Program-made: the position numbers and the translations under genes
Notes under the pieces: generated by a model
The model's database searches: none
What the model was told of the DNA's origin: nothing
What the model saw: only the letters and a program-made list of their open reading frames with translations
Source: an uncultured Gammaproteobacteria bacterium
Lineage (GTDB): Bacteria; Patescibacteriota; Patescibacteriia; Magasanikbacterales; JBBTXJ01
Assembly (NCBI GenBank): GCA_964610305.1
Contig: CAZSVL010000006.1
Span: forward strand, 13,973-77,972
Direction: 5' to 3'
Length of the DNA stretch: 64,000 nucleotides
In this document: one piece after another, positions 12,435-32,137 of the stretch
Layout: the number at the start of each line of letters is the position of its first letter
How positions within the stretch are numbered: the stretch's first letter is position 1

Positions 12435-12472
12435 GTCATCCCGGATTCGCGTAGCGAAGTCCGGGATCTCAC
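12435..12472 (+). repeat. GTCATCCCGG...CCGGGATCTCA miniature palindromic element (family 1, short variant)
   Basis: Shares terminal motifs with copies at 16542, 22105, 22188, 31926 and 31994. Confidence 0.6.
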
Positions 12473-12705
12473 AGAAAGGAAAACTAGCAACTGAGCCGAA
12501 TTTGAGTGATATCCTCTGGCCGACCGACAGTCCGCGCCCACCGGCGCGGCTGTCTTGAAACTCCCCCCTGAAATTTTTTGCTTCGCAAAAAAACCAGGTT
12601 TCAGGTTTTCCGTTACATCGTCCAGAGGATGTCATTGAAATTTTACTGTTTTGGTTAGACACAGATTTTGTTTCACTTTAGTTTAAAAAACGCTATAATA
12701 AGACC

Positions 12706-12954
12706 ATGAAGCAATTTATTCTTGGAGCCCTAGCAACAGCAATAGGTATGTATATGGTTATAAAGACAGAATCTGTTTTGAATATGTTTGGCAGTATGCG
12801 TTGGGCAGAAGAAAAACTCTCTGGCAGATCTAGGATGGGGTATAAATTAATAGGGCTTTTGGTGGTCATCATGGGACTTTTGGCGGTAACGGGTATGTTT
12901 GGAGGATTGGCCAGAGGCGCACTTACAGCTATTTTTGGCGGTGGCGGACAATGA
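12706..12954 (+). CDS. Small membrane protein (82 aa)
   Basis: Two hydrophobic helices. TATAAT sits just upstream. Confidence 0.4.
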   Translation: MKQFILGALATAIGMYMVIKTESVLNMFGSMRWAEEKLSGRSRMGYKLIGLLVVIMGLLAVTGMFGGLARGALTAIFGGGGQ

Positions 12955-13493
12955 TAACATCTTCATCTCTTCTAAAACCTCAAACACTGTGCGATATTGC
13001 GCAGTTGCAGCCGGGACACAACGTGGCAGATTTTGGCTGTGGCTCTCACGGATCGCTTGCTCACCATTTAGCACACTCTGTGGGGGAGGCGGGCAAAGTG
13101 TATGCCGTTGATGTGCGACCAGAGGCAGTACGGTTGGTGGGAAGATCACCCGGCCTTTATAATCCACCAACACCCATTGAGCCCATTTGGGCAGATATTG
13201 AACATTACGGCGCATGCAGTATTCCGCATGAAAGTCTTGACGTAGTATTTATAGTTGATGTAATCTCTTACTTGTCTAACATAGTTGGCGCGCTCAGAGA
13301 GGCTCAGAGATTACTGAGCCGCGGAGGACGCGTTGTGGTAGTAGAGTGGGGACATAGCGATCATCCACTAGCGCCACAGATGCCTGTTACACCAGAATCG
13401 GTGGCACGAGCAGGAGCAGATTTAGGCTTTGTTTTTGATCAGATTATTCCGGCCAGCGATCATCACTGGAGTATTGTTTTGCATCATACTTAA
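12951..13493 (+). CDS. Class I SAM-dependent methyltransferase
   Basis: VADFGCGSHG motif I. ATGA start overlaps the upstream stop. Confidence 0.55.
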   Translation: MITSSSLLKPQTLCDIAQLQPGHNVADFGCGSHGSLAHHLAHSVGEAGKVYAVDVRPEAVRLVGRSPGLYNPPTPIEPIWADIEHYGACSIPHESLDVVFIVDVISYLSNIVGALREAQRLLSRGGRVVVVEWGHSDHPLAPQMPVTPESVARAGADLGFVFDQIIPASDHHWSIVLHHT

Positions 13494-13499
13494 ACATAT

Positions 13500-13919
13500 A
13501 TGAACAATTTTTCACTGGGACATTTTTTTGATTGGGGATACTGGTTTGGTAAACCACTTACTGCTTCTACCAATGCACTTTGGGCAATGGCAATACTCTT
13601 TACGGGCATTTTTTTATTTGGTATTTATGCGGCTAGAAAGAGAAAGCAGGTGGACACGGGTATACAACGCGGCGTTTGGCGCAGATTTGCACAATGGGGC
13701 ATTACGTTTGGACTGTTGGGTTGGGTTTTTTGGCTTGCGCGTTATGAGACAATGCTTATCTTCAGGAGGCGCTACTGGATGCTCATATGGGCGCTGGCGG
13801 CCCTCTGGTGGCTCCACAGAGCATTTAAGCACGCAAAGCACCGTGCTCCGGCCCTAAACGCAGCAGCAAAGCAAGAGGCCTATAGAGAGCGTTATTTGCC
13901 AAAGAGAAAAAATAAGTGA
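13500..13919 (+). CDS. Membrane protein (139 aa), hypothetical
   Basis: Multiple hydrophobic helices. Confidence 0.4.
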   Translation: MNNFSLGHFFDWGYWFGKPLTASTNALWAMAILFTGIFLFGIYAARKRKQVDTGIQRGVWRRFAQWGITFGLLGWVFWLARYETMLIFRRRYWMLIWALAALWWLHRAFKHAKHRAPALNAAAKQEAYRERYLPKRKNK

Positions 13920-14272
13920 AGACGCAAAGAAGAGAATTTGGCGACTGGGGAGAAAAAGTTGCGGCGTGGTATTTGCAAAGAAAAGGATACAGGGTTTTTG
14001 CAAAAAATGTTCAATGTAGAGGTGGGGAGATAGATATAGTTGCACTAAAGGCCGGAATTTTGGTTTTTGTGGAGGTCAAGACAAGAAAAACAGATAATTT
14101 TGGCGGTATACAATCTATTACGCCCTATAAACAAAATAAGTTGCGTATTGCCGCGCAGCAGTTTTGTAGAAAAACGGGTGTGTCGGGAGCCATGCAATTT
14201 GATGCTCTCGTCATTGTTGGCGGCTCTCAAAGCAAGAGTATTAGCATAAAACATTACAGAAACTGTTTTTAA
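13916..14272 (+). CDS. YraN family (UPF0102) endonuclease-like protein
   Basis: GEIDIVA...VFVEVKTR...FDALVIV motifs. GTG start overlaps the upstream stop. Confidence 0.55.
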   Translation: MKTQRREFGDWGEKVAAWYLQRKGYRVFAKNVQCRGGEIDIVALKAGILVFVEVKTRKTDNFGGIQSITPYKQNKLRIAAQQFCRKTGVSGAMQFDALVIVGGSQSKSISIKHYRNCF

Positions 14273-14274
14273 AC

Positions 14275-14303
14275 TTGACACATAATACGCGCGGTGCTAT
14301 ACT
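14275..14303 (+). promoter_or_regulatory. Sigma70 promoter (TTGACA-N17-TATACT) upstream of nusA
   Basis: Consensus hexamers. Followed by hairpin 14313-14328 plus U-tract, a possible attenuator. Confidence 0.55.
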
Positions 14304-14407
14304 GCCCGTAATCAGCATAACTATGCTGGTTATTTTTATACTACAAATTGATTAATAGCTAAAAAAACGCGACTAGTTACCAGTTACTAGTTACCAGTTA
14401 TAAATGT

Positions 14408-30164: not shown

Positions 30165-30174
30165 AAGAAAAATT

Positions 30175-31803
30175 ATGGCAAAACAAATAACCTTTAATGA
30201 AGATGCGCGCGGCGCTCTAAAGCGCGGCGTAGATCAGCTAGCAGACGCGGTCAAAGTAACGTTGGGTCCAAAAGGACGCAATGTGGTTTTGGATCGTGGT
30301 TTTGGTGCTCCAACTATTACCAAAGACGGCGTTTCTGTTGCAAAAGAAATTGATTTAGAAGATAAAAATGAAAAGCTGGGTGCAGAGCTCGTAAAAGAAG
30401 TTGCCAGCAAAACCAATGATGACGTGGGAGACGGAACAACCACCGCTACCCTACTTGCGCAAGCTATTGTGTCAGAAGGCTTGCGTAATGTAACAGCAGG
30501 AGCAAATCCTGTAGCAATTAAGCGTGGAATAGATAAGGGTGCAAACGCGGTTGTTAAAGAAATTAAGGACAATATTGCCAAGCCTGTGCAGGACGATGAA
30601 ATTGCTCAAGTGGCATCAATATCAGCCAATGATAAAGAAATTGGTGAGAGTATTGCAAAAGCGCTTAAAGAAGTAGGAAAAGACGGTGTGGTAACCGTAG
30701 AAGAAGGACAGTCTTTTGGTGTGGAAATTGAGACGGTGAAGGGAATGCGCTTTGATAAGGGGTATGTGTCACCGTATATGATTACCAATCCAGACAGAAT
30801 GGAATCTGAGTATCAGGAAGTTCCTATTCTTATAACGGATAAAAAAATTAGCTCTGTCCAAGATGTTTTGCCTTTACTGGAGAAAGTGGCACAAACGGGC
30901 AGAAAAGATTTGGTGATTGTTGCAGAAGATATTGAGGGAGAGGCGCTTGCTACCTTTGTGGTTAACAAAATCCGCGGAACCTTTAATGTTCTAGCGGTAA
31001 AAGCTCCTGGTTTTGGAGACAGACGCAAGGAAATGCTTAAAGATATTGCGGTTCTTACCGGCGGAAAGCTTATTACAGAAGAAGTTGGCCTAAAGCTTGA
31101 TGCGGTAGAGATCCAAGATCTTGGAAGAGCAGATAAAGTTATATCAACCAAAGATCACACCACTATTGTAGGTGGAAAAGGAGATCAGTCTTCTGTGGAA
31201 AACAGAATTGCAGAGATTAGAAAGAGCATAGAGGTTTCTGATTCTGATTTCGATAAAGATAAATTAAAAGAGCGCCTTGCTAAGCTTGCTGGCGGTGTTG
31301 CGGTCATAAAAGTAGGGGCCGCAACAGAGACAGAAATGAAAGAGAAAAAGCATAGAATTGAAGATGCGGTAGCTGCTACCAAAGCTGCTATACAAGAGGG
31401 TATTGTGGCCGGTGGAGGTGTAGCTCTTTTGCGAGCGCGCACTGTTCTGGATAACATACAATCTTCAGACGAGGAATTGGTTGGTGTTAAGATTTTGCGC
31501 CGTGCACTTTCAGAGCCGCTTGCTCAGATTGCAAAAAATGCTGGCCAAGATGGCGCTGTTGTGGTGAAAGAAGTAGAAAAAGCAGACGGAAATTTTGGAT
31601 ATAATGCCGGAGCAGACAGATATGAGGATTTAGTTGTTGCCGGGATTATTGACCCAGCTAAGGTAACAAGATCTGCGCTACAGAACGCCGCGTCTATTGC
31701 AGGACTTATCCTGACCACAGAAGCTGTTGTGTCAGAGCTGCCATCCAAAGAGAGTGCCGCGCCAGCCATGCCACCAATGGGAGGCATGGGCGGAATGATG
31801 TAG
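30175..31803 (+). CDS. groEL: Chaperonin GroEL
   Basis: [12 protein letters not shown]...GPKGRNVVL and C-terminal GGM repeat. Confidence 0.92.
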
Positions 31804-31858
31804 GTTGGTAACTGGTAACTGGTAACTAGCCACTCGTAACTAGACTAGAAAATTTAAA

Positions 31859-31885
31859 ACACTCGGCTTTTGCCGGGTGTTTTTG
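31859..31885 (+). terminator. groEL terminator
   Basis: acactcggc tttt gccgggtgt followed by T5. Confidence 0.6.
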
Positions 31886-31925
31886 GTTGTGTGGCATTTC
31901 GGAATTTTGTGAAGCCTACCACTCT

Positions 31926-31968
31926 GTCATCCCGGAATTTTGCGAAGCAAAATATCCGGGATCTCAAG
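31926..31968 (+). repeat. Family 1 element
   Basis: gtcatcccggaattttgcgaagcaaaatatccgggatctcaag. Confidence 0.65.
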
Positions 31969-31993
31969 AATAACGTATACAGCAAAGCGTTCT

Positions 31994-32053
31994 CTTGAGA
32001 TCCCGGGTTCCGTCTACGCTAAAGCTACGCCGGACAGGCAAGCCCGGGATGAC
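31994..32053 (-). repeat. Family 1 element, 60-bp variant in reverse orientation (identical to 22105-22164)
   Basis: Exact reverse complement match. Confidence 0.7.
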
Positions 32054-32062
32054 ACGAATCAC

Positions 32063-32137
32063 GTCATCCTGAACCGAAGGTGAAGGATCTCCTGCCGCAA
32101 AGGAACGTATGAGATCCTTCGCTGCGCTCAGGATGAC
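32063..32137 (+). repeat. GTCATCCTGA...TCAGGATGAC inverted-repeat element (sub-family)
   Basis: 10-bp terminal inverted repeats with internal ggatctc/gagatcc palindrome. Confidence 0.6.

Follow-up and report, generated by a model that had tools for sequence, protein, structure and literature searches.

A stretch of 64,000 nucleotides from contig CAZSVL010000006.1 (assembly GCA_964610305.1; the whole stretch is here called the window) carries a conspicuous family of short palindromic repeats that begin with GTCAT and end with ATGAC, and the question it raises is what these repeats are and with which protein they belong. An earlier note on this DNA had left them as an unassigned family resembling miniature inverted-repeat transposable elements (MITEs) or repetitive extragenic palindromic (REP) sequences, and had proposed looking for a REP-associated tyrosine transposase (RAYT) or an insertion sequence (IS) as their partner. 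A repeat of Neisseria, dRS3, has been known since the 1990s. Our analysis suggests, with a probability of about 0.72, that the repeats of the window are Ssn-related motifs (SRMs), the class that includes dRS3 and the NTS of Neisseria. As that class was already described in 2025, the family would add a member to a kind of element that is already known and would not be a new kind.

The sequences described in the earlier note are present at all eight of its coordinates, and two of them, 22105-22164 and 31994-32053, are identical reverse complements as it had said (100% complementary over 61 nt, 22104-22164 / 31994-32054). A further pair, 16542-16587 and 31926-31971, are direct copies with 98% identity. 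Its count of at least eight copies was right in that all eight are real, but it was an underestimate: the family comprises about 16 oriented units, spread over eight intergenic sites within the stretch from 12.4 to 36 kb of the window. The extra units, recovered by a structural scan, lie two each in three composites of about 170 nt and are short. The only overlap with an open reading frame (ORF) is formed by the last 10 nt of one unit (32128-32137). The repeats are thus REP-like, multi-copy, hairpin-forming and intergenic, as had been claimed. In contrast, GTCAT...ATGAC is not a single palindromic element but an inverted, tail-to-tail doublet of one oriented unit, as seen in the pairs 22105/22228, 31926/32053, 30080/30164 and 32063/32137.

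From 5' to 3', the basic unit consists of (T)GTC, an imperfect palindrome with AT at both its opening and its close, and C(Y). Typical examples are GTC + ATCCCGGA...TCCGGGAT + CTCAAG, GTC + ATTCTGAA-CTTGA-TTCAGAAT + CTAG, and GTC + ATTGC...GCAAT + CCC. The GTC head is found in 15 of 16 units (the exception, 23326, has GTG) and the C directly after the palindrome in all 16. Tails such as CTCAAG and CCAG follow, and none of the units has a T-run directly behind it. In 12 of 14 units folded as DNA, the hairpin runs from the A that follows GTC to the T that precedes C; the hairpin of 23326 starts one base earlier, and that of 30080 differs at minimum energy. Fold z-scores lie between -4.7 and -6.2 for seven units and between -2.2 and -2.8 for three. 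The apices often contain a nested C(GNA)G, which is typical of stable DNA mini-hairpins. This architecture is well above chance expectation. The sequence CCGGGATCTCA, with at most one mismatch, occurs 7 times where 0.53 occurrences are expected, and a structural detector, which requires GTCAT, a stem of 8 bp or more from the AT onward and a C behind it, picks up 11 units where 0.44 are expected, the maximum among 200 dinucleotide shuffles being 3. Indeed, GTC...C is the commonest flank pair among all AT-closed hairpins in the window. Rfam returned nothing relevant (whole window at the gathering threshold; 12-36.5 kb by E-value scan), and a literature search by the sequence GTCATTGCGAG returned primers only.

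The same features define a class of nuclease sites. The NTS of Neisseria, CGTCATTCCCGCGMAVGCGGGAATCYRG, is an extension of dRS3, and it is bound and cut by SsnA, a GIY-YIG nuclease of 94 aa and a single domain that does not bind RNA; the target must be single-stranded DNA (ssDNA), and only one of the two strands serves (Chenal et al., Nat Commun 2025, PMC11893778). Cleavage is governed by the three bases (GTC) 5' of the palindrome, and the C directly 3' of it is the base most critical for binding; the loop need not keep its identity and may be extended (PMC11893778). SRMs flank 71% of ssnA homologs, and how these repeats move was left open by the same authors (PMC11893778). The class has since served as a benchmark in a 2026 preprint. 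The units of the window share with it the GTC head, the palindrome opened and closed by AT, the C right after it and the orientation, which is why we do not regard the family as unassigned. They are likewise 20-60 nt long, intergenic, multi-copy and clustered, and some share exactly the CYRG ending of the NTS (CCAG, CTAG). They differ from the NTS in their stems (CCCGG, TCTGAA or TGCGAG, versus TCCCGC), in their loops, many of which are 14-35 nt long with the nested C(GNA)G mini-hairpin, and in their usual tail, CTCAAG. Further differences are the host, which is a relative of Magasanikbacteria in the Candidate Phyla Radiation (CPR), and the placement of some doublets inside composites of about 170 nt with heptamer-repeat arms.

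Further evidence comes from the company that such units keep in other genomes. An Ssn consensus query retrieved more than 8000 proteins of about 95 aa with PF01541; the query is backed only by the real proteins retrieved (PF01541, 75-85% identical) and by the canonical NTS flanking their genes. Among the source loci was a contig of Ca. Daviesbacteria, itself a CPR bacterium (L031), in which GTCATTCCCGCGTAGGCGGGAATCCAG lies just upstream of the start codon of an ssn homolog, two GTCAT units (one +, one -) lie just past its stop, and more tail-to-tail doublets are found nearby. Units also stand beside ssn at nine loci of a viral collection and, among 13 further loci (L065-L077), at the nine listed, so that such cassettes are confirmed at about 20 loci besides L031. 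At most loci the arrangement is a cassette with one unit (+) just before the ATG and one unit (-) just after the stop. The flanking units include the canonical NTS, and long-loop forms occur in genomes of 34-36% GC. Two identical 95-aa Ssn copies lie 6.4 kb apart on a Melioribacteraceae contig (JBGORM010000001.1; L065 and L066), each inside an array of alternating units, an arrangement consistent with the ssn cassette itself being mobile.

A covariance model trained on 28 ssn-flanking units, all from other organisms, was run on the window. Its top nine matches were all units, with E-values of 0.003-0.3 that are individually marginal, and unrelated matches began at E of about 0.8. A scan of species-representative genomes and metagenomes for the subtype GTCATCCCGG-N(10-40)-CCGGGATCTCAAG gave 51 loci, a few of them coding or tandem look-alikes, in Alpha- and Gammaproteobacteria, Omnitrophota, Actinobacteria, CPR metagenome contigs and low-GC contigs. 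These loci have invariant flanks and covarying inner stems, and C(GNA)G is a frequent apex among them. At one of them, a metagenome contig of 38% GC (L058), the unit is identical to 31926-31968 at 43 of 43 positions and is preceded by the same partial duplicate. The earlier note had made its claim depend on further copies, and these exist: there are more in the window, the 43-nt unit recurs in L058, and the same unit type is found at about 50 loci in several phyla. Over 48 matches from many loci, in an alignment that was fitted to the model, 99% of stem cells are paired and 29 cells hold compensatory changes, a result equalled in 0 of 500 shuffles.

Several observations weigh against this assignment. 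The published SRM pattern, HGTCWYN(0-2)YYVSBRHN(0-5)WNVSBRGN(0-2)RNCYNB, matched 0 of 16 units, because their loops are too long, their stems are AT-rich and the CTCA tail breaks the last position; its two matches in the window are unrelated to the units, and relaxing the loop length did not help. A GIY-YIG motif expression and a six-frame search with an Ssn hidden Markov model (best E=23) found no ssn gene in the 64-kb window or within about 4 kb of its ends, nor was there one in the relatives of Magasanikbacteria, close and more distant, for which about 60 kb of non-redundant sequence was covered. In the metagenome and viral scans, units of the CCCGG/CTCAAG subtype never lay directly beside an ssn; one ssn (L001) lies near a unit of that type, yet it is flanked by another SRM variant. 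The E-values of the covariance model are, besides being marginal, only roughly calibrated. Finally, one long-loop unit and the half-units 30080, 30129, 32063 and 32108 fold weakly alone (z -1.4 to +0.3), although the two doublets to which these half-units belong give good folds when taken as complete palindromes (z -3.2 for 30080 and -4.8 for 32063).

The elements of the window, with E-values from the covariance model, are as follows.

12435..12472 (+): single unit, GTC + ATCCCGGA-TTCGCGTAGCGAA-GTCCGGGAT + CTCACA, situated beyond the terminator that ends the gene for a 1997-aa protein; fold z -5.0, E=0.07.
16542..16584 (+): single unit within the loop of the yidC terminator, whose outer stem (16532-16538 / 16588-16594) is followed by a T-run at 16595-16600 that belongs to this stem and not to the unit; fold z -6.2.
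18211..18387 (-): composite with heptamer-repeat inverted arms, a central hairpin and two short units, one intact at 18250-18276 (+) and one decayed at about 18311-18337 (-).
22105..22164 (+): long-loop unit with a 57-nt core, the left half of a doublet in the interval between the PMT_2 gene and prfA; E=0.3.
22188..22228 (-): right half of that doublet, tail to tail with 22105-22164; fold z -5.6, E=0.022.
23276..23449 (+): composite with a (GCTGTAY)n arm, a central hairpin and a (TACAGCN)n arm; units at 23326-23352 (head GTG) and 23384-23410 (-); fold z -10.9, E=0.003 for 23382-23413.
30080..30164: doublet of the TGCGAG type in the groES-groEL spacer, GTC-ATTGC...GCAAT-CCC plus an inverted GTC-ATCGC...GCGAT-CCC.
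31893..31925 (+): partial copy of a unit interior, directly 5' of unit 31926, as in L058.
31926..31968 (+): unit with a GCGAAGC mini-hairpin at its apex, which opens the cluster behind groEL; fold z -5.8, E=0.04.
31994..32053 (-): long-loop unit that forms a tail-to-tail pair with 31926-31968; E=0.17.
32063..32137: doublet of two weak units (GTC-ATCCT...AGGAT-CTC) that make up a long palindrome.
35861..36032 (+): composite with heptamer arms, a central hairpin and units at 35906-35932 (+) and 35965-35991 (-); E-values 0.004 and 0.08.

The terminal unit of the cluster supplies, with 32128-32137, the stop codon and the last two or three codons of a 158-aa ORF on the minus strand (32128-32604), which suggests that an insertion remodelled the 3' end of this gene.

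Comparison with relatives supported the claim that the family has moved recently, which had rested on the exact copies within the window. A close relative, whose GroEL is 95% identical, is represented by contigs of ENA ERZ930066. Its syntenic contig from nusA to tsf (L078, 11.5 kb) contains zero units: the doublet 22105-22228 and the composites at 18211 and 23276 are missing from well-conserved flanks, and the yidC terminator holds a different inner hairpin. The groES-groEL spacer is found in four states, namely empty with 14 nt (L082), with a single TGCGAG-type unit (L100), with the TGCGAG-type doublet (the window) and, in the relative with the 95% identical GroEL (L080), with a heptamer-armed composite that has two short units. 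The five units of the cluster behind groEL (31893-32137) lie between two convergent terminators, both of which are kept in L080 without units. Since relatives have empty sites or other occupants at these positions, the family must have been gained or lost recently. In the window organism the family has expanded locally, to 16 units in 24 kb compared with 0-2 per 11-22 kb in relatives, and the units favour particular harmless spots. However, no target-site duplication was found in the alignments of filled and empty sites, a check that had been asked for, and the classical definition of a MITE is therefore not satisfied. The ends of the relative's contigs share another repeat, GGTAATCCCTAAATCTGCCACC followed by a hairpin (L078, 11390-11415; L080, 1-130 and 5610-5727), which is absent from the window. 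The Logan contigs of the window organism break off at or near the GTCAT repeats.

The lack of target-site duplications also bears on the idea that the repeats are classical MITEs derived from an IS with a DDE transposase, with GTCAT and ATGAC as terminal inverted repeats. Short doublets with inverted termini, present in multiple copies, would suit such elements, but lone oriented units also occur and duplicate, with copy identity stopping at the unit borders, the termini are hairpin units and not simple inverted repeats, and the window has no related IS; we consider this origin very improbable. Somewhat better placed, though still improbable, are REP elements or their inverted doublets (REPINs) mobilised by a RAYT of the Y1/HUH type encoded elsewhere in the genome. 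The resemblance is real: extragenic palindromes, inverted doublets, mosaic clusters like bacterial interspersed mosaic elements (BIMEs), repeats flanking the partner gene, and recognition of an ssDNA hairpin with a short conserved 5' head are common to both, and the CPR contig L031 has a Y1_Tnp gene alongside its GTCAT units. RAYT-type REPs are reportedly marked by a conserved GTAG/GTGG head (work attributed to Nunvar, 2010, and Ton-Hoang, 2012). The head in the window is instead (T)GTCAT, and the partner class would be a GIY-YIG nuclease, not an HUH transposase. Pfam searches of about 64 window ORFs gave, among the matches listed, neither a Y1_Tnp nor a GIY-YIG domain, in keeping with the earlier statement that the window has no transposase. 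The contig L031 is itself instructive here. Its Y1 transposase, of 216 aa and 2 kb from ssn, has its own palindrome, ATATCACACCCTTGGGGTGTGATAT (12071-12098, 12791-12818 and 13802-13829), which does not occur in the window, whereas the GTCAT units flank ssn, which encodes the GIY-YIG protein of about 95 aa. Neither a RAYT nor an IS transposase is therefore the partner to be expected for the GTCAT units, and the contig indicates that REP/RAYT-like and SRM/Ssn pairs coexist in one CPR genome. A comparable likeness exists to the IS200/IS605 elements with their 'peel and paste' TnpA, which also recognises a hairpin in ssDNA strand-specifically and cuts a few nucleotides aside; the window elements, however, have no tnpA or tnpB and no distinct left and right end hairpins, and their units measure only 25-60 nt.

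The repeats might also need no dedicated nuclease, acting as host hairpins at the level of RNA or transcription, or be orphan relics of a lost Ssn system. Every copy is intergenic and most lie at gene 3' ends, one unit sits in a terminator loop and one doublet in the co-transcribed groES-groEL spacer, and no ssn is present in the sequence searched (window, flanks and relatives). Like intrinsic terminators, the units are GC-rich hairpins at gene 3' ends, and unit 16542 is nested in one. Yet they lack a T-run of their own, occur in both orientations and have conserved unpaired flanks; the GTC head and 3' C are conserved across phyla, which a terminator does not need, and relatives have functional-looking terminators without units. 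The identity of copies and the empty sites likewise point to recent spread and not to conserved regulation, and RNA is not bound by SsnA. On balance, this explanation seems unlikely. A CIRCE/HrcA operator at groESL was ruled out because the sequence does not resemble the CIRCE consensus, TTAGCACTC-N9-GAGTGCTAA.

If the units are SRMs, a mechanism can be proposed by analogy with Neisseria. Where a single strand is exposed, during replication, repair or the uptake of transforming DNA, a unit would fold into its hairpin. A single-domain GIY-YIG Ssn nuclease of about 95 aa would then bind the hairpin together with the 3' C and nick the strand to which it is bound, a few nucleotides 5' of GTC, leaving double-stranded DNA, RNA and the complementary strand uncut. 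A tail-to-tail doublet would place one cleavable unit on each strand. The autonomous form would be the cassette unit(+)-ssn-unit(-), and the doublets, clusters and composites of the window would be its gene-less relatives, accumulating in gaps between convergent terminators, in terminator loops and in operon spacers; the outline of a doublet is that of the cassette minus its gene, which suggests gene-less derivatives of a selfish cassette. The source organism presumably encodes a cognate Ssn outside the window, and this enzyme probably cuts these particular variants; its gene would be expected beside units opening with GTCATCCCGG... or GTCATTCTGAA... The role may be to limit or shape recombination of incoming or exposed ssDNA, or simply selfish spread; incoming ssDNA might, for example, be restricted as it is in Neisseria.

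The three composites deserve separate mention. Each has heptamer inverted arms, two short tail-to-tail units and a conserved central hairpin, and the copy in the groES-groEL spacer of L080 is differently armed; the central motif matched nothing in any other locus retrieved. It is conceivable, although we put this forward tentatively as the less probable case, that they represent a non-autonomous mobile element, hitherto undescribed, with Ssn motifs as its building blocks. In that case, the heptamer arrays could be made or homogenised by the insertion or repair process through which the units spread. Nine tandem arrays of period 7, with 3-4 copies each, occur in the window (14375-14400, 18218-18239, 18350-18373, 23287-23316, 23422-23449, 26418-26441, 31806-31827, 35874-35894 and 36004-36033). 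All are intergenic and confined to the unit-bearing stretch, and six of the nine form the inverted arms of the composites. We take them to resemble the STRR heptamers of cyanobacteria. Heptamer arrays also stand beside units in Wenzhouxiangella (L007 and L021), Omnitrophota (L014), the CPR contig L031 and the L080 composite, which has a (CCCTAAC)n arm. One hairpin, in the rpsB-tsf spacer (26372-26443), has a 22-nt centre enclosed by nothing but inverted heptamer arrays, (AGTAACA...) and (TTGTTAC)n, and contains no GTCAT unit; since the same spacer measures 6 nt in L078, heptamer-armed hairpins seem to insert alone as well.

The genes of the window include nusA, yidC, prfA, those for L31 and S2, tsf, gap and groES/EL. 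The nearest relatives of its GroEL are proteins of Candidatus Magasanikbacteria/Patescibacteria (80% identity), from which we conclude that the host is a CPR bacterium. Two giant ORFs encode 1997 and 2730 aa, the first with internal Cys-rich repeats, and another block has TraG/VirB4-like, DUF87 and PrgI matches, which hint at a module for type IV secretion or conjugation; the regions concerned are 6393-12386, 40302-48494 and 54033-62162. The right half of the window, which is free of units, may be a separate and recently acquired region. A second repeat family, ATAGCACA-N(about 14)-TTTGTCAAGG on either strand, is promoter-like and occurs at the following sites.

27333-27378, 29377-29422 and 29665-29707: promoter-like repeat.
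33589-33621 and 34725-34767: promoter-like repeat.
24707-24734, 20320-20354 and 49565-49589: promoter-like repeat.

Read on the other strand, this family gives TTGACA-N17-TATAGT/TATAAT, that is, conserved sigma-70-like promoters, and it is separate from the hairpin family.

What is new here is the dense local expansion in a CPR host, the variants that escape the published pattern, the direct evidence for rapid turnover and the heptamer-armed composites. Because the published pattern misses members with long loops, AT-rich stems and CTCAAG tails, surveys based on it undercount the class. Repeats of this kind also disrupt the assembly of such genomes from short reads. A cognate nuclease with a new specificity, should there be one, would enlarge the toolbox of site-specific ssDNA nucleases, and if the composites are indeed mobile elements, they would offer a first handle on how Ssn-associated repeats move. 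The comparisons of filled and empty sites document rapid turnover and insertion hot spots, namely the groES-groEL spacer and the gap between convergent terminators, and a conspicuous repeat family of a Magasanikbacteria-like CPR bacterium can now be placed, at the strength given above, in the Ssn/SRM system.

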